Counted from the first letter of the stretch, positions 1,391-62,201 are shown. The stretch: DNA of 64,000 bases from an uncultured bacterium (GCA_963811625.1 CAWERS010000001.1:28320-92319), one strand, 5' to 3'. A program made the numbers and translations. Notes: generated from the sequence alone by a model not told the origin.

Positions 1391-2806
1391 GTGGCCGATC
1401 GGCAGCAGCGCAGCCCAACCCGTGGGCGCGGGGCCCGGACCTTGCGCCTCGGGCAGGTCGCCGCGGGCGGCGCGGTCCGCTGGGCAAGCGACCGCGTCGA
1501 CGGGCGCGGAAGCGAGGAGGACCGGCGACGCCGTCGCGGCGACCGACTGGTAGCGACGATCGACTCGCTGGTCGATCAGCTCCAGACGATGCGGGGCGCT
1601 GCGATGAAGGCCGGCCAGGTCCTTTCCACGGTCGAATTCCCCGGGCTCGACGCCGACCAGTCCGCCCATCTGCAGGCACGCCTCGCCTCGCTCCGCGACG
1701 ACGTTCCCGCGGTCGGCTGGAAGCAGATGCGGAAGGTGATCTCCAGCGAGTGGGGGGAGGACCCCGAGCGGATGCTCGCCTCGATCGATCCCGAGCCGGC
1801 AGCCGCGGCGAGCATCGGTCAGGTCTACCGGGGGAAGACCACAGCCGGGCTCGACGTTGCGATCAAAGTCCAGTACCCCGGGATTGCCGAGGCGGTGGAG
1901 TCGGACATGCGAAACATCCGGATGCTTGCGCCGCTCTTGCGCCGGATGATGCCCGGCCTTGATGTCAAGCCGGTGCTCGCCGAGCTCAGCGAGCGCATCT
2001 CCGCGGAGTGCGACTACGAGCTCGAAGCGTCCAGCCACCGCCGCCTCGCCCGCTTCTGGCGCGGCCATCCGTTCATCTCGGTCCCGGCGGTCGACATGCG
2101 CCTGAGCCGCCGCAGGGTGCTGGTCAGCGATTGGGTCGACGGCATCGACTTCGCGGAGGTCGGTCGGCAACCGGATCCGGTCCGCGACCGCTACGCGGAG
2201 ATCATCTACCGCTTCTTCTACGGGGCCGCCCGCGAGCTCGACCTGGCGCTCGGCGACCCCCACCCCGGCAACTATCTGCTCTGCGACGATGGGCGAGTCG
2301 CGTTCATCGACTTCGGCATGCTGCGCGACCTCCCGCGCGGCTACCTGGACCGGGAGGCGGTGATCCTCAAGGCGATCCGCGATCGGAACGCGCCGGCGCT
2401 CCTCGACGCGATGCGAGCGCTGGGCTACCTCGGGGATGACGGTGACTGGAATGGCTCGCTGCTGCTCGACCACATGCGCGCGGTCTCGTGGTGGCTCGAG
2501 GCCGACGGGCCCCTGCGGCTGGCGCCCGAGGACATCTGGCGCGGCGGCGCGTCGCTGCGCGATGACCGCAACGGGGAGCTGCGGCAGCAGATTCGCCGCA
2601 TGACCCTGCCGCCCGAGGCCCTGCTGCTGCGGAGGATGGAGGGTTTGCTCTTCCAGGTCGCGTCGACGCTTCGTGCGGAGGCGAGCTGGGGTGCGCTGCT
2701 GGGCGAGCTGATCGAGGGCGGCGAGCCCGTCGGCCAGCTCGGTCGGGAGCATGCCGCCTGGCTCGCCGAGCGGGGTCTGCGGCCGGCGACCGCCCCGAAC
2801 GCGTAG
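1391..2806 (+). CDS. ABC1/UbiB (AarF) atypical kinase family protein
   Basis: 471-aa ORF with ABC1 motifs KAGQVLS, AAASIGQVYRG, VAIKVQYPGI, GDPHPGNYLL, AFIDFGM. GTG start; exact start uncertain. Confidence 0.8.
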   Translation: MADRQQRSPTRGRGARTLRLGQVAAGGAVRWASDRVDGRGSEEDRRRRRGDRLVATIDSLVDQLQTMRGAAMKAGQVLSTVEFPGLDADQSAHLQARLASLRDDVPAVGWKQMRKVISSEWGEDPERMLASIDPEPAAAASIGQVYRGKTTAGLDVAIKVQYPGIAEAVESDMRNIRMLAPLLRRMMPGLDVKPVLAELSERISAECDYELEASSHRRLARFWRGHPFISVPAVDMRLSRRRVLVSDWVDGIDFAEVGRQPDPVRDRYAEIIYRFFYGAARELDLALGDPHPGNYLLCDDGRVAFIDFGMLRDLPRGYLDREAVILKAIRDRNAPALLDAMRALGYLGDDGDWNGSLLLDHMRAVSWWLEADGPLRLAPEDIWRGGASLRDDRNGELRQQIRRMTLPPEALLLRRMEGLLFQVASTLRAEASWGALLGELIEGGEPVGQLGREHAAWLAERGLRPATAPNA

Positions 2807-2821
2807 GCGCCCAGAGGGACG

Positions 2822-2933
2822 GGCTTATCTTTGCCGCTCGGGACCTGGAGTGGAGCTCCGAATCAGCCCGTCAGGCGTATCCGTTCGACTATCCGTGCGT
2901 GTAGCGAGAGACGAATCGGGCCACCGATCGGAT
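2822..2933 (+). repeat. Intergenic repeat family 1, copy A
   Basis: Starts GGCTTATCT. Its 42-nt core ATCCGTGCGTGTAGCGAGAGACGAATCGGGCCACCGATCGGA (2891-2933) matches 7211-7252 at 39 of 43 aligned columns. Contains the small hairpin ATCGG-gcca-CCGAT. Confidence 0.75.
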
Positions 2934-3150
2934 TTACCTGAGACGCACGGAGCGGACTGGGAAGACCCAGGCGAAGCGACCACATGCGCAACGGGTTTCC
3001 AAGCCTCCTCGCCGCTCTCTGGAGCCTGGTCTTCTTGGAACGCGGCACTCCTCGTACGCTAACCGCCAGACCACCCAAGTCAACGGGGAACAGAAGCACC
3101 TGTAGGTCCGCTGGGAGGAGAGCGATCCGCCGGAAGCTAAGCTGCGGCGC

Positions 3151-3516
3151 GTGAAGGTCGCCTACATCTTCTCGACCTCCGGGCACACGGCGAGCTACAA
3201 ACTCGGCAAGATGATCCTGCCGCAGCTCGAGCAAGGAAACCACGGGGTGGAGGTCGTCGGGATGTTCTTCTTCGACGACAACACCTACGTGCTGCGCGTG
3301 GGCGATCCGCTCGGCGAGCGCCTCGCCGAGGTTGCCGAGGAGCAGGGGATCATGCTGATGCTCTGCGACCGATGCGCGATCGAGCGCTCGCTCGCGGAGG
3401 GTGAGCCGGGCGACTGCCGTCCCAGCGGCACGGTCGCGGGAGTGCGGGTCGGCTGCTTTCCGGACCTCTACGGGGCGCTGTCGGAAAACCCGCCGGACCA
3501 AGTGATCACGCTGTAG
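3151..3516 (+). CDS. DsrE/DsrF/TusD-like sulfur-relay family protein
   Basis: 121-aa ORF with GTG start. DsrE-like pattern MKVAYIFS...VEVVGMFFFDDN...MLCDRCAIERS (conserved Cys followed by Arg). Confidence 0.65.
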   Translation: MKVAYIFSTSGHTASYKLGKMILPQLEQGNHGVEVVGMFFFDDNTYVLRVGDPLGERLAEVAEEQGIMLMLCDRCAIERSLAEGEPGDCRPSGTVAGVRVGCFPDLYGALSENPPDQVITL

Positions 3517-3556
3517 CTGCGAAGCGCAAGGCGGTCTCAGGGCTCGGTCGAGCCCG

Positions 3557-4960
3557 CTAAGCGGCCGGCTGGCTGCCGGCCACCGAGGCGCGCTGGATGT
3601 CGGTGGGCTCGGCGCAGCAGAACCATGCCTCGGTGAGCCGCGGGCGCGGCTCGACGTCGCCAAGGTCGGCCGGGTCGGCTGAATGTCCCGCGGCATCGGC
3701 CACCGCCCGATACAGGGTCCGAAACGTCGACGCGCTGCCGACCTCCGCCGCGACATCGGCCTCGACGATTTCGGCGAGCTCGGCATGGAGGCGATCCAGC
3801 TGCGGATCCCTGGCTTGCCAGTCATACGTGAGGCGGTCGCGATCGTAGTCCTGCAGGTGCGGTGTGATCTCGGGGCGATCGAGTAGCAGCGAGCCCTTGG
3901 GCACGAGCAGACGGATCGTGTACTGGATCGGATCCACGTTCCCCACCATCTCGTTGGCAATCACGAAATCGAGGATCTCGAGGATGTCTTGCGGTGTCGC
4001 CCAGGGCGTGAACGGCAACCACGACGGGCGGATCTCGATCCCGTGCTCGCGCAGCAAGGCCACCGCCTGGGCGGCCTCGTCCGCGGTGTGACCCTTGTCG
4101 AGATAGGTGAGGATCTCGGCGTTGAGCGACTCGAACGCCGAGATCACGAAGAGGCACCCATGTTCGCTGAGCTCGGGCCAGACCTGACGATGCTCGAGGA
4201 TGTGCTCGACCTTGGTCGTGCAGTCGAAGGTGACCTCGGGAAAGTGGCGGTGAAGCTCGCGCGCCACTTGCAGGGAATGCTTGACGCCGTTTAGGAAGTC
4301 CGGGTCGCCGAAGGTGATATGGCGTGCCCCCGCCGCCACCAGCTGGGCGATATCCGCCATCACCACGGAGCTCCCGACGATCCGGATCCGGCCGTCGTAG
4401 GCGACGGGCACCGGGCAGTGCCGGCACTTGTGCACGCAGCCGTGGCTGGCCTCGACGTACCCCGCGAGCTGCTCCTCGCCATCGCGCTCCAACCGCGCAT
4501 AGCGCTTGAGGGGCGGCAGCTGCCCTCGGCTCGGGGTGTGAAACTCGTGGCGCCCCAGGTCGATCGAGCTGGTCGCCGGTCGCAGCGCCGGCGAGTCGCC
4601 GAGCGCCTCAACCCACTCCACCAGCTCCGACTCGTACTCGCCGGCGATCAGCCGGTCGACCAGTCCACCGATCGTCGGGTCGTCACTGACCGCCGCGTAG
4701 AGACCGTAGAAACAGATCGGCAACTGCGGCCGGGTCGCTCGAATGTGCTCGCCGGCGCCAATCGCCAGTCGCATCGCGGTGTGCATGGGGACGGAGACGC
4801 CGACGGCCTCGGCCCAGTCGATCTTGTCTCTATCGAGCTGCTCGACGGAGAGATCGATGCACCGAACCCGATGCCCGGCGGCCCCCAGGGCGGCCGTCGG
4901 CGAGGCCAGGTGCAACGGCTGATGACCAAGTTCGTAGGTGGAGATCAGCAGGACCCGCAC
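3557..4960 (-). CDS. B12-binding-domain radical SAM protein with CCAEP C-terminal tail
   Basis: Track ORF 3557-5389 trimmed to GTG at 4960 (VRVLLISTYELGH), 27 nt after the ATP-grasp stop. Radical SAM CX3CX2C motif (SHGCVHKCRHCPV). C-terminal tail EAWFCCAEPT, with Cys codons TGC TGC at 3614-3619. Confidence 0.85.
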   Translation of the reverse strand: MRVLLISTYELGHQPLHLASPTAALGAAGHRVRCIDLSVEQLDRDKIDWAEAVGVSVPMHTAMRLAIGAGEHIRATRPQLPICFYGLYAAVSDDPTIGGLVDRLIAGEYESELVEWVEALGDSPALRPATSSIDLGRHEFHTPSRGQLPPLKRYARLERDGEEQLAGYVEASHGCVHKCRHCPVPVAYDGRIRIVGSSVVMADIAQLVAAGARHITFGDPDFLNGVKHSLQVARELHRHFPEVTFDCTTKVEHILEHRQVWPELSEHGCLFVISAFESLNAEILTYLDKGHTADEAAQAVALLREHGIEIRPSWLPFTPWATPQDILEILDFVIANEMVGNVDPIQYTIRLLVPKGSLLLDRPEITPHLQDYDRDRLTYDWQARDPQLDRLHAELAEIVEADVAAEVGSASTFRTLYRAVADAAGHSADPADLGDVEPRPRLTEAWFCCAEPTDIQRASVAGSQPAA

Positions 4961-4986
4961 AGCGCCAGGATAGCCTTCGCGCCGCT

Positions 4987-6216
4987 TCACTCCGACGGCT
5001 CGCCGATCACGATTTCGAGGCAGTTGTGGGCGGTGCGCAGTGCCCGCTCGACCTGCTCGGGCGTCTCGCCGCGGGCGAAGAGGAAGCCGAGGTAGCGATC
5101 GGCCTCCGGCAGCGTCTGCACCCGCTTGCCGGGCGCGATCGAGACCTCGAGCCCAGTCACGCCGGGCACCGCTCGCGCCCGCGCCTGCCCGCGCACCTCC
5201 TTCAGCATCCCCGCCTTCGGGATCGGGAGCATCATTACCCCGGAGGCGGCGGCCTCGCGGCTTAGGTCGTCGAGCGGCAGCCCGAGGGCGTGGCGCAGGA
5301 TGAGCTCCTCGAGGCTCACGCCCATCCCGAAGCGCAGCGAGCGCGAGCACAGCCCGCCAATCGAGCGGGCGGCGAGCTCGAGGATCCACACGCCATCCCC
5401 GTCGATCCGCAGCTCGGCGTGTATCGGCCCCTCGATTAGGCCGAGCGTGGCGGCCGCCTCGGCCGTGAGGAGGGTGACGGCCTCCAGGGTCTCCGCGGGC
5501 AGGCGCGACGGGGTCACGTAGATGGTTTCCTCGAAATAAGGGCCCTCGAGCGGATCGGGCTTGTCGAACACCGCCAGGATCTCGAGGGCGCCGCCGCGCA
5601 AGAGGCCCTCGACGGCCACCTCCACGCCCGGGACGTAGCGCTCGACCAGCAGCGGCGCGTCCGGGTCCTCGCCGGCCTCGGCGAGGATCGCCCTGACTCG
5701 CTCGGCCGCGGCGTCGGCCGCCGGCGGATCGTTGGCGCGGATCACGCCGCGGCTCGCCGACAGCGAAACCGCCTTGACCACGCAGGGAAGACCGACCTCG
5801 CCGGCGAGCTGCGCCACGTCCGCGTTGGGCCCGGCGACCCGGTAGTCGGGCTGGGGCAGGTCGGCGGCCGCGAAGGCTCCACGCATCGCGGTCTTGTCCC
5901 TGGTCGCCGTGACCGCCTCGGGCGGGTTGTGCGCGAGCCCCAAGCGCGCGGCGGCCAGCGCGGCCACGAGCACCCCCTGCTCGTCGGCGCCGACCACGGC
6001 GTCGAGCGGCTTATCCTGCGCCCGGGCGACGATGGCATCGGCGGCGGCCTCGGGCCGCCTCAGGTCCACGACCAGCGCCCGGTCTCCCATCGTCCCCGAC
6101 ATCGCCTGCCGGCGCTCGGAGGCGACCACCACCTCGGCGTCCAGCGCCCGGGACGCGGCGAGGAAATCGCTCGCGCGGTAGGTGGCTGTGGGTAGCAGCA
6201 GAAGGACGCGGGGCAT
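4987..6216 (-). CDS. ATP-grasp domain protein (ligase-like)
   Basis: 409-aa ORF with ATP-grasp pattern LPCVVKAVSLSASRGV, LLVERYVPGVEVAVEGL, GPIHAELRI...VWILELAARSIGG. ATG at 6216. Confidence 0.8.
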   Translation of the reverse strand: MPRVLLLLPTATYRASDFLAASRALDAEVVVASERRQAMSGTMGDRALVVDLRRPEAAADAIVARAQDKPLDAVVGADEQGVLVAALAAARLGLAHNPPEAVTATRDKTAMRGAFAAADLPQPDYRVAGPNADVAQLAGEVGLPCVVKAVSLSASRGVIRANDPPAADAAAERVRAILAEAGEDPDAPLLVERYVPGVEVAVEGLLRGGALEILAVFDKPDPLEGPYFEETIYVTPSRLPAETLEAVTLLTAEAAATLGLIEGPIHAELRIDGDGVWILELAARSIGGLCSRSLRFGMGVSLEELILRHALGLPLDDLSREAAASGVMMLPIPKAGMLKEVRGQARARAVPGVTGLEVSIAPGKRVQTLPEADRYLGFLFARGETPEQVERALRTAHNCLEIVIGEPSE

Positions 6217-6278
6217 GGGCGTATCGTAGGTAGCGGGGAGTCCGCAACTGGCGAACGGCCAGCCATACGGGACATGAG

Positions 6279-6968
6279 ATGAGCGCCGAAGACACAGCCG
6301 AGCCGACGCTCGCGATCACCGAGCAGGCGATCGAGAAGGTCAGGGGGTTCCGCGCGCAGTCCGAGGACCCCGAGAGCCAGGCGCTGTGGGTGGAGGTGAG
6401 CGGCGTCTCGGGCGGCGAATACGTCTGCAAGATCTCCCTCAACGCATTGCATGTTGCGCGCCAGGGCGACGTGGTGCAGCGCCACGGCGACCTGGCGATC
6501 GTGGTGCGCGAGTCGAGCGTCGAGAAGCTGCGGGGCGCCACCATCGACTGGTCGGAGGGACTCGCGCAGAGCGGCTTTACTCTCGTGAACCCGAACAGGC
6601 CGCCGGCCCCGGCGGAGCTCCCGATGATGAGCCCGTCGATGGCGCCGCCCGCGAGCCCGCCGATCGACGCTCGTCCACCCGCCGACCTCAGCGGCGACGT
6701 CGCCCAGCGGATCATCCAAGTGATCGACCAGCAGATCAACCCGGCCATCGCCGCGCACGGCGGGCATGCGGAGCTGGTCGCCGTCGAGGAGGACGCCGCC
6801 TACCTACGCCTGGGCGGCGGCTGCCAGGGCTGCGGGATGGCCACCGTCACCCTCGGCCAGGGGATCGAGGTCGCGATCACCGAGGCGGTTCCGGAGATCG
6901 CCCGCGTGGTCGACGTCACCGACCACGCCGTCGGCACCAACCCCTACTTCGAGCCCGCCAAGAAGTAG
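6279..6968 (+). CDS. Fe-S cluster carrier, IscA/HesB-like N-domain fused to Nfu domain (NfuA-like)
   Basis: 229-aa ORF. C-terminal Nfu signature INPAIAAHGGHAELV...GGGCQGCGMATVTLGQGIE. Confidence 0.8.
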   Translation: MSAEDTAEPTLAITEQAIEKVRGFRAQSEDPESQALWVEVSGVSGGEYVCKISLNALHVARQGDVVQRHGDLAIVVRESSVEKLRGATIDWSEGLAQSGFTLVNPNRPPAPAELPMMSPSMAPPASPPIDARPPADLSGDVAQRIIQVIDQQINPAIAAHGGHAELVAVEEDAAYLRLGGGCQGCGMATVTLGQGIEVAITEAVPEIARVVDVTDHAVGTNPYFEPAKK

Positions 6969-6977
6969 GGCGCCTGC

Positions 6978-7252
6978 GGCTTATCTCCGTGTCGTCCGGG
7001 CGAGCTCTGAGCGTCGGCGGCTCCGGGGCTGGAGCACTCGGCGCCTTGGCTTCACCCGTTTGTCCCGCCAACCGTCCAACCGTTCAACAGCGAACGTCGT
7101 CCACGCCGAGGGACGATGGGGTCGCCTGGGACGCTCAGGGACGCATCTGCATGCGTTCCGTGCTGGCTGGGGGCCGAAAAGGTCAGGGCGCCAAGCGCAC
7201 GCGCTCGACAATCCGTGCGTCGTAGCGAGAAACGAATCGGACCCCGATCGGA
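6978..7252 (+). repeat. Intergenic repeat family 1, copy B (expanded)
   Basis: Same GGCTTATCT start and same 42-nt core (7211-7252) as copy A. Carries about 150 nt of extra sequence between the two conserved ends. Confidence 0.7.
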
Positions 7253-7283
7253 ACCCGCGACACCGGTCGTGCTCCCGATTAAC

Positions 7284-7395
7284 CCTAGGTTCTAGATCTG
7301 CCTCCGGGCTGAGAACCCGAACGTCCCGTAAAGGACCGACGGCGCAGTATCTCGCGAGAGTCCCGAGGCGGCTCGAAAGCGGTGACCCGACTGCT
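7284..7395 (+). repeat. Intergenic repeat family 2, copy R1
   Basis: CCTAGGTTCTAGATCTGCCTCCGGGCTGAGAACCCGAACGTCC-loop-GGACCG...CGGCTCGA. Aligns with 8782-8855 and partly with 29721-29775. Confidence 0.7.
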
Positions 7396-7423
7396 GAACG
7401 AGTCCTTTGCGTAGGTCGTGCCC

Positions 7424-8779
7424 CTAGTCCTCGGGATCGAGGCCCAGCAGCGCCGCCACCTCGCGCCCGAAGGCGCCGACGATCTCGCCCGGATCGGGCA
7501 CAAGGCCGCGGTCGGCCATCACGCCGACCGTCACCTCGCCGGCGTAGCTCAAGATCGAGATGCTCATCGAGACGCCGCCAGAGGTAGGGGCCCAGACGAG
7601 CACCCCACGCACCGGTGTCCCGGCGAGGTAGACCGGCTCGCGCGGGCCCGGGACATTGGTCATCACCGCCGAGCCGGCGGCGGAGAAGAGGTCGAGCAGT
7701 CGCTGCTCGACCGCCGCCGGCGTCGCCCCAAGGGCGCCGAGCAGCCCGTAGCCGATCGCGCCCTCGGGCGAGTCCTTGATCTCGACCATCCGTCGGTGGA
7801 CCTCCTCCAGGCGCCGGCGGGGATCCTCGATCCCGACCGGGACCGGCAGCAGCACGAGCCCGAAGTGGTTGCCCAGGTCGCGCGGCAGCGGCTCGTCGAG
7901 CGGGCGGAGGTTGAAGGGGACGAAGGCGTGCAGCTCGTCGACGAGGCTGTCGCGCTCGGCGAGATAGCTGCGCAGCGCTCCGGCTACCGCCGCCAGCAGC
8001 ACGTCGTTGACGGTCGTGCCGGTCGCGTGCCCGACGGCCTTCACGTCGTCGAGCAGGATCGGATCGGACCAGGCGACCTGCTCGGCCACCCCCAGCTCGC
8101 CCTTGAAGACCGTGCTCGCGTCGGGGCTCGAGAAAAGCGCTTTGGCGATGGCCTTGGCGTCGTCGCGCGCAGCCGCGGCGAGGTCGATTAACTCGGAAGG
8201 GTCGCGGACCAGCTCGACCACCTCGTGGGTGAGGCCGCCCCCGACGTCGCGGCCGATCGAGGCGGCGCGTCGGGCGGGGCGAACCAGGTCGCCGACCAGA
8301 CCGCTGACCCCGCCGCCGTCGGCCTCCTCCGGTTCCTCGGGCTTGATGCCCGCGTCGGGCTGGGCGTCCGTCAGCGAAAGCAGGACCCTCGCCAGCGCGA
8401 TCCCATCGGCGATGCAGTGGTGCATGCGAGCGACGATCGCGGAGCCGGAGCCATAGCCGTCCACGAGATACCAATGCCACAGCGGACGGGACCGGTCGAG
8501 CGGTTGCGCCGTGAGATCGGCGACCAGCTCTTGCAGCGCAACCCGGTCGCCAGGGGCCGGCAGCGCGGTGTGGTGCAGGTGCAGGTCGAGGTTGAAGTCG
8601 GGGTCGTCCTCCCAGCTCGGACCGCGCAGCGGGATGCGGCTCTCGCTCACCCGCTGGCGGAAGCGCGGGAAGCAGTCGACCAGGCGTGTCGCGATCACCT
8701 CGCGCACCTCATCCCAACTCAGCGGCTCGTCGAACCACAGCGCCCCGGTTATGACCATGAGGTTGGTCGGGCGATCCAT
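7424..8779 (-). CDS. Wax ester synthase/diacylglycerol acyltransferase (WS/DGAT)
   Basis: 451-aa ORF with catalytic HHCIADG (HHxxxDG) motif and the N-terminal MDRPTNLMVI typical of the family. Confidence 0.9.
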   Translation of the reverse strand: MDRPTNLMVITGALWFDEPLSWDEVREVIATRLVDCFPRFRQRVSESRIPLRGPSWEDDPDFNLDLHLHHTALPAPGDRVALQELVADLTAQPLDRSRPLWHWYLVDGYGSGSAIVARMHHCIADGIALARVLLSLTDAQPDAGIKPEEPEEADGGGVSGLVGDLVRPARRAASIGRDVGGGLTHEVVELVRDPSELIDLAAAARDDAKAIAKALFSSPDASTVFKGELGVAEQVAWSDPILLDDVKAVGHATGTTVNDVLLAAVAGALRSYLAERDSLVDELHAFVPFNLRPLDEPLPRDLGNHFGLVLLPVPVGIEDPRRRLEEVHRRMVEIKDSPEGAIGYGLLGALGATPAAVEQRLLDLFSAAGSAVMTNVPGPREPVYLAGTPVRGVLVWAPTSGGVSMSISILSYAGEVTVGVMADRGLVPDPGEIVGAFGREVAALLGLDPED

Positions 8780-12273: not shown

Positions 12274-14353
12274 GCGACGAGGGCAGCCATACCGGGTCGC
12301 CGATATCGAGCACCAGGGCCGGCACCAGCAGCGATCTGACTAGGAAGGTGTCGATCAGGACGCCGACCGCGATCGTGAAGCCGATCTCGGTCAGCGCCAC
12401 GAGCGGCAGCACCGCCAGGGTCGAGAAGGTGCCTGCCAACACCACGCCGGCCGAAGTGATCACCGCCCCGGTGGCGGCAAGGCCTCGGATCGTCCCGCCG
12501 CGAGTGCCGTGCGTCAGGGTCTCCTCGCGCACCCGGGCCATCAGGAAGATGTTGTAGTCGATGCCGAGCGCCACCAGGAAGATGAACGCGAACAGCGGCA
12601 GGCCGGGGTCGATGCCATCGAACTGGAACACCTTCTCGAAGAAGAACGCTCCGATCCCCAGGGCGGCGAAGAACGAGACGATGACGGTCCCGATCAGGAC
12701 CAGCGGGGCAACGACGGCGCGCAGCAGCGCCATCAGGATCAGGAAGACGACGAGCAGGGCTATCGGGACGATGACGACGGTGTCGCGCGCCGTCGATTCG
12801 CGCAGGTCGCGCTCCTGGGCGGTGGGCCCGCCCACCAGGACGCTTTCGCCTCCGGCGGCGTGCACCGCCTTGCGCAGCCCCGGGATCAGGTTGAAGGCGG
12901 TCGTGCTGTAGGGATCCTCCGCAAGGGTGACCTCGAGCTTCGTGCCCGTCGGGCCCTGTTCCTCGTTCGGGGAGACCTCGGCTACGCCGGGAGCATTCGC
13001 CGCAGCGGTGCGCACCGCGTCGAGCTTCGACTCGTCGGTGACCACCACGTAGGTCGGCGCATTGGCGCCGGCGGGGAAGCCCTGGTTGAGCAGCTTCTGG
13101 CCCTGCACCGAGTCGACATCGTTCCGGAACCCGTTGCCGGTGGTCAGGTCGCTGTTGAGGTGGACCAACCCCAGGCTCATCACGGCCAGCACCGCCGTGG
13201 TCCCGATCCACACCCGGCGCGGGCCCCGGGCGACCCGCTCCGCGATCCGTCGCCAAGAGCCGTGGGTCTCATCGGCTCCCTCGGTGCCGTAGCGCGGAAT
13301 GAAGGGCCAGAAGGCGCGGCGCCCGAACACCGTCAGCAGCGCCGGGAGGAGCGTCAGCATCGAGATCATCGCCAGCGCGATCCCCATCGCGCCGACCGGC
13401 CCGAGCCCGGAGGTGCCCGTCACTTCGGCCAGGGTCAGGGTCAGGAGCGCCGCGATCACGGTCGCCCCGGAGGCGAGAATGACCGGGCTGGTTCGCGACA
13501 GCGTCCGCCGGATCGCGTCGTGCTTGTCCTCGTGCCGGCGCAGCTCCTCGCGGTAGCGCGAGACCATCAGCAGCGCATAGTCGGTGCCGGCGCCGAAGAC
13601 GAGCACCGGGAGGATCCCTCCGGACTGCCCGGTCACGGTCACCCCGGCCTCGGTGAGCAGGTAGCCGAGCCCGCGTGAGGTCACCTCGGCCAGGAGCACC
13701 GAGAAGAACGGGATCATCCAGAAGATCGGGCTGCGGTAGATGACGATCAGCAGGATCAGGACGAGCGCGCCGGTCGCGTACAGCAGGGTGCCGTTGATGT
13801 CGTTGAAGACGTCGACCGCGTCAGCCGAGAAGCCGGCCGGCCCCGTCACCTTGGCCACCAGACCGCTCGGCAGGGAGTCGAGCTCGTCCTTGATGTCATT
13901 CGGCGTCTCGGTGAGCACGTCCTGCGCAGCACCGGTGGCTCCCCGGGGCACGGTGATCGGCGTCGTCAACAGGGCGGTGGCGCCGTCGGCCGAGGTCAGC
14001 GCGGGCCCGGTCTTGGCCACGCCATCTCGGCGCTGGGCGTTGACTGCCGCGCGCACCTGCTGGATCGCGGCCCTGTCCTCGCCGGTCAGCCCGCCGTCGC
14101 GATGAAAGACGGTGATCGCGTCGGCCTCATCCTGCGATGGAAACCCCTTCAGCGCATCGATCGCCTTCACCGACTCCGCGTTTGCCGGAAGGTAGTCGGC
14201 GGGATCGTTCTCCTGGGCATCCTCGAACTTGCCCGACAGCGGCCCGATCGCCGCCGCGACCACCAGCCAGACGCCGATCACCGCGAACTTGGCGCGTCGG
14301 CCGCCGGGCAGCCGGGCCAGGGTGCTGGCGATCGGCCAACGCCTTTGCTTCAC
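12176..14353 (-). CDS. MMPL family (RND superfamily) membrane transporter
   Basis: 725-aa ORF with two blocks of transmembrane helices separated by soluble loops and a typical MMPL N-terminus. Its GTG start overlaps the cfa stop (GTGA at 14350-14353). Confidence 0.85.
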   Translation of the reverse strand: MKQRRWPIASTLARLPGGRRAKFAVIGVWLVVAAAIGPLSGKFEDAQENDPADYLPANAESVKAIDALKGFPSQDEADAITVFHRDGGLTGEDRAAIQQVRAAVNAQRRDGVAKTGPALTSADGATALLTTPITVPRGATGAAQDVLTETPNDIKDELDSLPSGLVAKVTGPAGFSADAVDVFNDINGTLLYATGALVLILLIVIYRSPIFWMIPFFSVLLAEVTSRGLGYLLTEAGVTVTGQSGGILPVLVFGAGTDYALLMVSRYREELRRHEDKHDAIRRTLSRTSPVILASGATVIAALLTLTLAEVTGTSGLGPVGAMGIALAMISMLTLLPALLTVFGRRAFWPFIPRYGTEGADETHGSWRRIAERVARGPRRVWIGTTAVLAVMSLGLVHLNSDLTTGNGFRNDVDSVQGQKLLNQGFPAGANAPTYVVVTDESKLDAVRTAAANAPGVAEVSPNEEQGPTGTKLEVTLAEDPYSTTAFNLIPGLRKAVHAAGGESVLVGGPTAQERDLRESTARDTVVIVPIALLVVFLILMALLRAVVAPLVLIGTVIVSFFAALGIGAFFFEKVFQFDGIDPGLPLFAFIFLVALGIDYNIFLMARVREETLTHGTRGGTIRGLAATGAVITSAGVVLAGTFSTLAVLPLVALTEIGFTIAVGVLIDTFLVRSLLVPALVLDIGDPVWLPSSLARTARHGRREEPTGQPVYEAEYRKQAGPRTP

Positions 14354-53057: not shown

Positions 53058-53531
53058 ATGGACGGACTCCCGGAGCTGACAATCGGCGAAGTGGCGCAGC
53101 GCGCCGGAGTGGCGACGTCCTCAATCCGCTACTACGAGCGGATCGGCCTTCTCCCGGAGCCCGATCGCGTGGGAGGCCAGCGACGCTACGACGCGGAGGT
53201 GCTCGGCAAGCTGGGGTTCATCGGCGTCGCCCAGAGCGCCGGATTCAAGCTGCGCGAGATCAAGGAGCTGCTGGAAGGTGTCGAGGGCGCAGACGGCCTC
53301 GGCGATCAGATGCGCTCGCTGTCAGCTCAGAAGCTGGGTGAGGTCGAGGCTCTCCTCGAACGCACCAAGGCGATGAAGGGGTGGCTCGAGGTGGCGCAGG
53401 AGTGTGGCTGCGCGACGCCGGAGGAGTGCGCGCTTTTCCCCGCTCCCGGGGAGGAGCTTGGGGGCGACTTCGCTCTCCAGGTTGTGCGGGTGGAGGGCAA
53501 GGACTGTCGACGTCCTCCCGTCCACGGTTGA
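53058..53531 (+). CDS. MerR family transcriptional regulator
   Basis: LTIGEVAQRAGVATSSIRYYERIGLL HTH. C-terminal Cys pair ECGCATPEEC. Confidence 0.85.
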   Translation: MDGLPELTIGEVAQRAGVATSSIRYYERIGLLPEPDRVGGQRRYDAEVLGKLGFIGVAQSAGFKLREIKELLEGVEGADGLGDQMRSLSAQKLGEVEALLERTKAMKGWLEVAQECGCATPEECALFPAPGEELGGDFALQVVRVEGKDCRRPPVHG

Positions 53532-61951: not shown

Positions 61952-62201
61952 CGAGCGGTTTCCTCTCGGCCTACGGGGTTAGCTGTCGGGCTCGCGCGGT
62001 GCGGTCGCGCTTGGTCCGCTTGGCCAGCCGGCCTTGGACCGTTCGCCCCGGGGAACTGTTTGGTTCCCCCGCTCCACCCGGGTGGCCCGGGCGGATTCGG
62101 CTCACTAGGCGCGGCAGGGTAGCAGGGAGGGTCGGACCCCACAAAAGTTCCCGCAAATCGGGGATGGCGCGGAGCGCCACGCCGCCATAGGATCCGGGGC
62201 C

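Follow-up and report, generated by a model that had tools for sequence, protein, structure and literature searches.

What does a radical SAM (S-adenosylmethionine) protein build when its gene is found together with those of an amino-acid ligase and an iron-sulfur (Fe-S) carrier? The question is raised by a four-gene block in a 64,000-nt stretch of DNA (~70% G+C) from an uncultured bacterium (GCA_963811625.1 CAWERS010000001.1:28320-92319), the whole of which is referred to here as the window. The block encodes a DsrE-like protein, a radical SAM protein (rSAM), an ATP-grasp ligase and an NfuA-like Fe-S carrier. The rSAM is a member of the CUAEP/CCAEP-tail family, which has been named and explicitly described as uncharacterised (Haft, bioRxiv 10.1101/2022.07.06.499078). 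In the literature, the family name was found in one preprint only and is absent from a 2026 selenoproteome review, and a search yielded no description of the family's linkage to a ligase and Nfu protein, of its fusions or of its mobility. Relative to known systems, the module is a variant of the ArsL kind. Sequence comparisons lead us to propose, tentatively and at somewhat less than even chances, that ArsL-type chemistry is what the cassette uses to make a non-standard amino acid or dipeptide.

The radical SAM protein and its relationship to ArsL

With 567.2 bits against NF040546 (cut-off 500), aligned over positions 1-466 of the 468 in the model, the rSAM belongs to the named, uncharacterised family to which the original prediction had assigned it. 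The second-best model was that of ArsL (NF040542, 298.7 bits; cut-off 450), and all other rSAM families scored at most 42 bits. The family call was therefore sound, while the strongest functional lead, the relationship to ArsL (299 bits versus ≤42 for the others), had been overlooked. Judged by these scores, the nearest characterised relative of the rSAM is ArsL, by a wide margin, and over 409 aa the rSAM shares 33% identity with a bona fide ArsL. It nevertheless falls outside the ArsL family itself, with 298.7 bits against the required 450, a CCAEP tail and no ars genes among its recurrent neighbours.

ArsL cleaves SAM to methylthioadenosine and a 3-amino-3-carboxypropyl (ACP) radical or organometallic species and forms a C-As bond; its C-terminal RCCLKC motif holds As(III) for alkylation, and cobalamin is not mentioned in the papers that describe it (10.1101/2024.02.01.577332; 10.64898/2026.04.29.721666). 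With dithionite, ArsL has been seen to give methylthioadenosine together with 2-aminobutyrate or homocysteine sulfinate. According to a review, the ArsL variant MCCA is the most efficient on methylarsenic (PMC13598754). As we read it, this variant retains the CC dyad alone, and its activity on methylarsenic suggests that the dyad suffices for a substrate needing two thiolates.

In the rSAM as in ArsL, a Rossmann-like N-terminal domain is followed by a CX3CX2C core and by a C-terminal tail rich in Cys. The C(C/U) dyad of the window family falls opposite the CC of RCCLKC in the alignment, and neither protein has conserved cysteines for an auxiliary cluster. In contrast, the tail of the window family, FC(C/U)AEP, offers two ligands where that of ArsL offers three, and the invariant residues H181, P183, H291, E444 and W446 are specific to the window family. 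The partners also differ: ArsL, encoded by arsQML for arsinothricin biosynthesis, works with ArsM and ArsQ, whereas the window rSAM is accompanied by an L-amino-acid ligase (LAL) and an NfuA-like protein, outside any ars operon. Finally, the window family is far larger, extends over several phyla and consists of selenoproteins for about half of its members.

The C175/C179/C182 motif is invariant in 65 of 66 diverse family members, as well as in ArsL. Besides this cluster triad, the only Cys position conserved family-wide is Cys448 of the dyad, which is followed by Cys or selenocysteine (Sec) at 449. C83, C247 and C269, considered as ligands of an auxiliary Fe-S cluster, are invariant in close homologues only; family-wide they are kept in 23, few and 45 of the 66, respectively. 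Since no further Cys is conserved across the family, an auxiliary cluster is unlikely.

The N-terminal Rossmann-like domain precedes the CX3CX2C core and the C-terminal tail. Its original label, "B12-binding", is weak, the score against Pfam PF02310 being 21.8 bits, under the gathering score of 32.1; "B12 radical SAM" describes the fold, not the cofactor. In an AlphaFold2 (AF2) model of mean predicted local distance difference test score (pLDDT) 75, the core is predicted with moderate confidence and tail residues 443-467 are unplaced (pLDDT <50), which would fit a mobile arm. The structural neighbours of the model were AprD4 (the best), TsrM and OxsB, at a template-modeling (TM) score of ~0.46, and also MgmA, TokK, CysS, MiaB, RimO and LIAS. 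AprD4 works without B12, and TsrM and OxsB are B12 enzymes. A sequence search of the PDB gave no ArsL or CUAEP structure, the best matches (MgmA and AprD4) covering the core only.

A scan of 1.84 billion cluster representatives recovered 416 family clusters at 50% identity (E≤1e-30). More than 8000 clusters at 90% identity were scored for the family, in which identity across phyla is ~60%. True ArsL sequences (KRCCLKC) turned up in the scan only at ~225 bits.

The C-terminal tail and its selenocysteine orthologues

As predicted, the rSAM product ends in a CCAEP tail (...EAWFCCAEPTDIQ...), both Cys codons being TGC. The C-terminal end reads ...RPRLTEAWFCCAEPTDIQRASVAGSQPAA, with the tail WFCCAEPT, and the window copy is thus an ordinary Cys-type member of the family. 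The tail is conserved in homologues: 119 of the 120 best have either C-C-A-E-P or a stop directly after ...WFC, the exception being a fragment. Among 80 genome loci taken for the same comparison, all 78 that could be scored keep x-L-x-E-x-W-F/Y-C-(C/U)-(A/S/T)-E-P, and in the cluster-representative scan the tail is retained down to ~35% identity.

At 35 loci (~45% of orthologues) an in-frame TGA occupies the second dyad position and is followed by a conserved AEPTxxQ.G.L. Fifteen nt past the TGA lies a 7-bp hairpin with the loop AGUU(C/U/G), resembling a selenocysteine insertion sequence (SECIS); 93% of it is paired, compensatory changes occur in 6 of the 7 pairs, and none of 500 shuffles equals it. 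The conserved downstream coding sequence and the covarying hairpin argue that the TGA-bearing orthologues are genuine selenoproteins. Sec-type orthologues, envisaged from the outset with Sec at the first Cys of the dyad, thus exist and carry it at the second.

A conserved three-gene core

Gene neighbourhoods were compared in two scans: one of 80 genome loci, with counts made over the 61 (or 59) with enough sequence, and one of 80 metagenome loci whose seeds were remote members of the family (38-50% identity to the window rSAM). In the genome loci, the rSAM gene is directly preceded by a co-directional ATP-grasp gene in 44 of 61 cases, and an NfuA-like gene lies within 2.5 kb in 49 of 61. The linkage proposed originally is therefore upheld for these two partners and not for the DsrE-like gene, which was found at 12 of 59 loci, all from Solirubrobacterales. 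Reciprocal look-ups starting from ATP-grasp homologues returned the same trio. In the distant scan the ATP-grasp gene adjoins the rSAM gene at 41 of 80 loci with the order shuffled (upstream, downstream or separated by a short Nfu gene). The conserved core consists of the LAL-type ATP-grasp, the rSAM and the NfuA-like protein, and is found in Thermoleophilia, Acidimicrobiia, Chloroflexota and more distant lineages; the DsrE-like gene is a lineage-specific accessory outside it. One natural fusion (P0373) joins an ATP-grasp/LAL protein to an rSAM.

Other neighbours recurred in the distant scan, including YggX/Iron_traffic (19 loci, often with a 4-nt overlap with the rSAM start), short Nfu proteins, zf-CDGSH, GBBH-like_N/DUF971, DUF169, flavin reductase and a formyltransferase (11 loci). 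Pooled over all look-ups, DUF169 occurs near the rSAM at 23 of 171 loci. At eight loci (L095, L100, L103, L123, L134, L145, L149 and L160; ~7660-7986 in loci taken with 8-kb flanks) the YggX gene shares 4 nt with the start of the rSAM gene and has a divergent formyltransferase-like gene before it, and the ATP-grasp gene is absent or distant. On contig L082 (6524-10005), DUF169, NifU and ATP-grasp genes form a trio without an rSAM, followed by short unannotated open reading frames (ORFs) and, ~3.6 kb on, transposases; this copy may be disrupted, since the same ATP-grasp protein adjoins an rSAM on contig L081.

A more distant branch shows associations with MerB. In P0257 and four related clusters the rSAM is fused to a MerB domain that retains the equivalents of the catalytic Cys96, Asp99 and Cys159; P0257 passes NF040546 with 623 bits. 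Two loci with the fusion (L164, 3378-9406; L167, 79-4755) also encode a conserved unknown protein of 267-285 aa and a BpsA_C-domain protein, joined in L164 by PhyH and a sulfotransferase-like protein, and look like small-molecule biosynthetic clusters. A 187-aa protein encoded upstream of the rSAM gene at locus L165 was considered as a split MerB and rejected, having no similarity to it.

In Catenulispora rubra, genes for MerR, MerB and an ArsR-type regulator lie on one side, and those for the rSAM, DUF169, an ArsR-type regulator, an LAL, a pyridoxal phosphate (PLP) decarboxylase and an ABC exporter on the other. A 7.3-Mb genome and Nonomuraea carry genes for the rSAM, a methyltransferase, an aminotransferase, an unknown protein and MerB in a row; DUF169, a second MerB, LALs and MFS exporters are encoded nearby. 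In a metagenome-assembled genome of Thermoanaerobaculia, MerR and a CopZ-like protein are encoded on one side and the rSAM, DUF169, LAL-GNAT, decarboxylase, MerT and MerR on the other. The methyltransferase of these MerB-branch clusters occupies an ArsM-like position, and several of their MerRs carry a Cys...Cys-x8-Cys pattern, which we take to be that of Hg(II)-sensing MerR.

The ligase and the accessory proteins

The ATP-grasp product contains Pfam domains ATP-grasp_4 (97.9 bits), LAL_C2 (64.9) and ATPgrasp_N (29.9), the domain composition of an L-amino acid ligase. The closest relative of solved structure is 3VOT, L-amino acid ligase BL00235 (E 1.6e-27, 100 bits, residues 55-402), ahead of BacD (1e-10); no NCBIfam equivalog model scored above its cut-off. 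The three domains are shared with the known LALs (BL00235/3VOT, BacD/YwfE, RizA and TabS). What sets the window ligase apart from these is the association of such genes with an rSAM gene, up to a fusion in one case, which the searchable literature does not describe for known LALs. At one locus (L006, 9634-9954, corresponding to window positions 5018-5661) the ATP-grasp gene is a probable pseudogene, as judged from an internal deletion of 644 nt, with the rSAM, Nfu and DsrE-like genes intact.

The NfuA-like product combines a degenerate A-type N-domain that has no conserved Cys ligands with a C-terminal Nfu domain bearing CxxC (C182, C185; Pfam NifU, 75 bits). This is the layout of E. coli-type NfuA; the differences lie in its score against TIGR03341 (NfuA), which at 99.2 bits is under the cut-off of 269, in a Pro/Ala-rich linker of ~35 residues, and in its dedication, by position, to the rSAM-ligase operon.

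The DsrE-like protein, whose gene is convergent with the rSAM gene, passes NF040913 (the "ELSE" clade) with 201.1 bits (cut-off 152), and at 121.8 bits falls short of SaoD proper (NF040732, cut-off 169); no genes of the SAO (selenocysteine-assisted organometallic) system lie nearby. Its CxxC (C72, C75) and C102 are invariant in 11 orthologues, and a sequence search returned no solved relative. The "ELSE" clade has been linked to metal handling, and the Cys-Sec dyad has been listed in SAO proteins, HgcA and MerT (both Haft, bioRxiv 10.1101/2022.07.06.499078). Since the protein falls in this SaoD-related, metal-linked clade, the proposed role of sulfur or selenium relay is unproven. The likeness to the SAO system lies in the DsrE-like protein, which belongs to a sister clade of SaoD with the same invariant CxxC and Cys, and in those rSAM family members that are fused to MerB or adjoin MerB, MerT and MerR genes. 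By contrast, the window has neither SaoL/MerB nor SAO transporter genes, and no Sec.

A mobile cassette

The block is shared at 93-97% nucleotide identity (blastn) with eight other genomes of Solirubrobacterales/Thermoleophilia. The homology always breaks on the left at 3132-3135, the ribosome-binding site of the DsrE-like gene, and on the right at 6974-7082, just beyond the Nfu stop codon. Past these breaks nothing aligns, the flanks of the eight genomes being unrelated to the window and to each other. Mobility-related genes lie beside the cassette in L004 (an IS110 transposase and a DDE transposase fragment; 6302-6670 and 12376-13760), in L005 (tRNA-Met and a tyrosine integrase; 5365-6895) and in L010 (an IS3 integrase; 2707-3351). 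These alignments identify the four-gene block as a discrete, mobile cassette moving between related soil bacteria.

Locus L003 (8064-11407) is a mosaic without a DsrE-like gene. Its ATP-grasp and Nfu genes match those of genomes with a Sec-type rSAM (L013, L014 and L019) at 92-94% identity, yet its rSAM is the Cys-type one of the window (96-98%). By the pattern of identities, a Cys-type enzyme seems to have taken the place of a Sec-type one with single-gene precision, which argues that the two forms are functionally interchangeable.

The repeat that had been taken to bracket the module does exist, as a direct repeat with a 71-nt core and 82% identity between the copies. The wider extents first given (2822-2933 and 6978-7252), resting on the shared 9-mer GGCTTATCT, were not sustained, nor was the role of the repeats as module bounds: the module is defined by the sharp homology breaks at 3132 and about 6974-7082, and the repeats lie 100-270 nt outside them. 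Only two copies occur in the 64 kb; the left one, 216 nt upstream of the DsrE-like start, is outside the conserved block. A related copy is present at the same relative position in L008. As a general cassette boundary the repeat was not supported: it is missing from the flanks of L004, L005, L009 and L010, and in L006 and L008 it occurs at other places. The idea of a structured RNA or of a known RNA family was dismissed (no Rfam match even at E≤1; folding z -0.07 to +0.66 against shuffles). We take the repeats for a dispersed intergenic element with no proven link to the cassette.

Proposed function and alternatives

An rSAM with ArsL as its relative, paired across phyla with an amino-acid ligase and an Fe-S carrier, would probably assemble an uncommon amino acid or dipeptide centred on a soft atom (metal, metalloid or chalcogen). 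We infer each chemical step of the mechanism set out here; the families, the linkage, the tail conservation and the cassette boundaries are observed. The NfuA-like protein would supply or repair the single [4Fe-4S] cluster on C175/C179/C182. The rSAM would then, like ArsL, cut the C-gamma-S bond of SAM, giving methylthioadenosine and a cluster-bound ACP species, to whose carbon the flexible tail (E-x-W-F-C-C/U-A-E-P) would offer a soft atom X held by two chalcogen ligands (Cys-Cys or Cys-Sec). The product would be a 2-amino-4-X-butanoate, candidates for X being a two-coordinate metal or metalloid (Hg(II), methylarsenite) or Se/S. The LAL-type ATP-grasp, probably co-translated with the rSAM, would couple this methionine-shaped amino acid to a second amino acid. 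The DsrE-like CxxC+C protein may serve as an optional thiol carrier for X in Solirubrobacterales, with DUF169, MerB-like and other proteins in accessory roles elsewhere.

ArsL-like ACP transfer followed by ligation is proposed because of the architecture shared with ArsL, the aligned dyad, the CC-only MCCA variant and the apparently mobile tail. Conservation of the tail, with Sec and Cys in roughly equal numbers, the linkage to the ATP-grasp gene, and the organometal genes and MerB fusions of other branches, together with the sister relation to SaoD, are further support. The recurrence of Fe and Fe-S trafficking partners near the rSAM (NfuA, Nfu, YggX, CDGSH and DUF971) also counts in its favour. 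LALs join non-proteinogenic "warhead" amino acids to carrier amino acids, for example in bacilysin and rhizocticin. BL00235 makes Met-Gly and Met-Met (PMC6920838), and its N-terminal substrate is therefore already an amino acid of the ACP-X kind. As to X, the mer-type context and MerB fusions of other branches point, by analogy, to a Hg-like or other two-coordinate soft species, and the DsrE-like gene and Sec leave Se or S possible. A bolder proposal, which we hold to be doubtful, is that the CUAEP/CCAEP-tail family as a whole consists of widespread, mobile formers of C-metal(loid) or C-chalcogen bonds, in which a dyad-held, two-coordinate soft element such as Hg(II), methylarsenite or Se would be alkylated with the ACP group of SAM and then passed to the LAL to give a peptide.

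Several points weigh against ACP transfer to a soft atom. In a family that is enzymatically uncharacterised, an identity of 33% to ArsL does not settle which bond of SAM is cut. Compared with ArsL, the family is far larger, and at ~60% identity across phyla it is very conserved, as would be expected of a housekeeping or cofactor enzyme more than of one with exotic metal chemistry. No ars or mer genes were found beside the cassette or in the 160 loci of the two scans, the sole match in the window being a MerR-family gene 46 kb away, and no exporter, methyltransferase or resistance gene was found in the window. Metal(loid) gene context is confined to the more distant actinomycete/Acidobacteriota branch. 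The ATP-grasp is missing at 17 of 61 loci, and the similarity of the ligase to BL00235 is distant and too slight for substrate specificity to be carried over.

One alternative is a conventional enzyme of class B (cobalamin) or one generating a 5'-deoxyadenosyl radical. The ligase would make a small molecule or peptide, which the rSAM would then methylate or rearrange, and the tail would be a redox or H-donating arm comparable to the GCUG tail of thioredoxin reductase or to the resolving Cys in RlmN/Cfr. The weak Pfam B12-binding match, the structural neighbours TsrM, OxsB, MgmA, TokK and CysS, and the Sec/Cys interchange typical of redox-active residues all suit such an enzyme. That B12 match is nevertheless under the Pfam threshold, class-B methylase models reach at most 42 bits versus 299 for ArsL, and both the best structural match (AprD4) and ArsL work without cobalamin, so that we consider this alternative unlikely. 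The DsrE-family neighbour and the presence of MiaB, RimO and LIAS among the structural matches suggest S or Se insertion. Here the tail would be charged with a persulfide or perselenide by the DsrE-like protein, or sulfur would come from sacrifice of the Nfu cluster; the carbon radical would capture it, and the resulting thio or seleno amino acid would be ligated. Radicals attack S-Se and S-S bonds readily, and NfuA regenerates sacrificial clusters in LipA. The DsrE-like gene, however, occurs in one order only and belongs to the metal-associated SaoD-like clade, and no third conserved Cys set for an auxiliary cluster is present (C83, C247 and C269 are not family-wide). Moreover, YggX, CDGSH or DUF971 in place of Nfu elsewhere fits cluster or iron maintenance better than sulfur donation. 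S or Se insertion is accordingly judged decidedly unlikely, and equally so its expected product of the homocysteine or selenohomocysteine type, for instance conjugated into a new low-molecular-weight thiol; the formation of homocysteine from SAM has no obvious metabolic logic.

Both ATP-grasp and rSAM enzymes are known from pathways for ribosomally synthesized and post-translationally modified peptides (RiPPs), and Dph2 transfers ACP to a protein (10.1101/2024.02.01.577332; 10.64898/2026.04.29.721666), so that the pair might mature a peptide or protein encoded elsewhere. The ligase, however, has LAL_C2 and matches free-amino-acid ligases rather than graspetide or RimK types, and no conserved small ORF occurs in or beside the module or among the recurrent neighbour clusters, which makes such maturation very improbable.

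Biological C-As bond formation was discovered recently, in ArsL, and stands isolated. Should the much larger sister family as a whole carry out analogous chemistry on another soft element, such chemistry would be a major theme in soil bacteria and no longer a curiosity, and soil Actinomycetota, Chloroflexota and Acidobacteriota would possess an unrecognised organometal(loid) amino-acid metabolism. The scale of the family corresponds: it fills hundreds of clusters at 50% identity, and roughly every second member is a selenoprotein. The minimal three-gene core, the natural ligase and MerB fusions and the Sec/Cys interchangeability in L003 provide handles by which the function of NF040546 becomes testable, and the cultured hosts Catenulispora rubra and Nonomuraea carry extended clusters of metal-regulated look.

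Organization of the locus

The coordinates of the cassette, its genes and the repeats are collected in Table 1. The four ORFs proposed originally are present in the ORF list, and the same frames are backed by a gene call based on G+C content at third codon positions (GC3, 0.86-0.93).

Table 1. Features of the four-gene cassette and of the adjoining repeats in the window.
Feature	Position	Strand	Basis
Discrete four-gene cassette	3132..7082	none	homology block (blastn)
DsrE-like, SaoD-related "ELSE" clade	3151..3516	+	NF040913 score, Cys pattern
CCAEP-tail radical SAM, 467 aa	3557..4960	-	NF040546 score
Cys448-Cys449 dyad, TGC TGC, tail E-x-W-F-C-C-A-E-P-T	3614..3619	-	codon read-out, alignment
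Radical SAM cluster motif C175-x3-C179-x2-C182 (GCVHKCRHCP)	4415..4438	-	alignment
ATP-grasp ligase, L-amino-acid-ligase type	4987..6216	-	Pfam domains, solved relatives
Divergent intergenic region ATP-grasp/NfuA-like, 62 nt	6217..6278	none	
NfuA-like Fe-S carrier	6279..6968	+	Pfam NifU, Cys pattern
Left repeat copy, 71 nt	2863..2933	+	dispersed intergenic repeat
Right repeat copy	7183..7252	+	82% identical to left copy

The ATP-grasp gene lies directly upstream of the rSAM gene, and the two are probably co-transcribed. Their close spacing was predicted correctly, except that the gap from the stop codon (TGA 4987-4989) to the GTG start at 4960 measures 26 nt and not 27. A GAAGG lies ~15 nt upstream of this GTG. 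An alternative GTG at 4990 would give a 4-nt overlap with the ATP-grasp stop; the start at 4960 is favoured because homologues mostly begin with MRVLL. The ATP-grasp and NfuA-like genes diverge, as noted originally, across an intergenic region that was again measured at 62 nt, and this arrangement is kept in most loci. A sigma-70 consensus scan of 2700-7500, including the divergent gap, returned no sites.

The absence of a precursor-peptide ORF was likewise confirmed: no intergenic ORF has a coding-like GC3 (all ≤0.77 versus 0.86-0.93 for real genes), and none is conserved past near-identical relatives. Both a precursor-peptide and a carrier-protein ORF were rejected on these grounds.

The flanking genes encode a LuxR-type regulator, DegV, an ABC1 kinase, WS/DGAT, MFS, a photolyase and MMPL, none of them related to the module. 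The right repeat copy contains a terminator-like hairpin with a T-rich tail (7238-7257, minus strand), ~170 nt downstream of the convergent WS/DGAT gene. The MerR-family gene of the window (~53067-53465, plus strand) is 34-36% identical to MerRs adjoining CCAEP-tail rSAM genes in other phyla and, given its distance of 46 kb from the cassette, is treated as unlinked. The sole Rfam match in the window is a c-di-AMP riboswitch (RF00379) at 61958-62112 on the minus strand, with 44.8 bits against a gathering score of 38.

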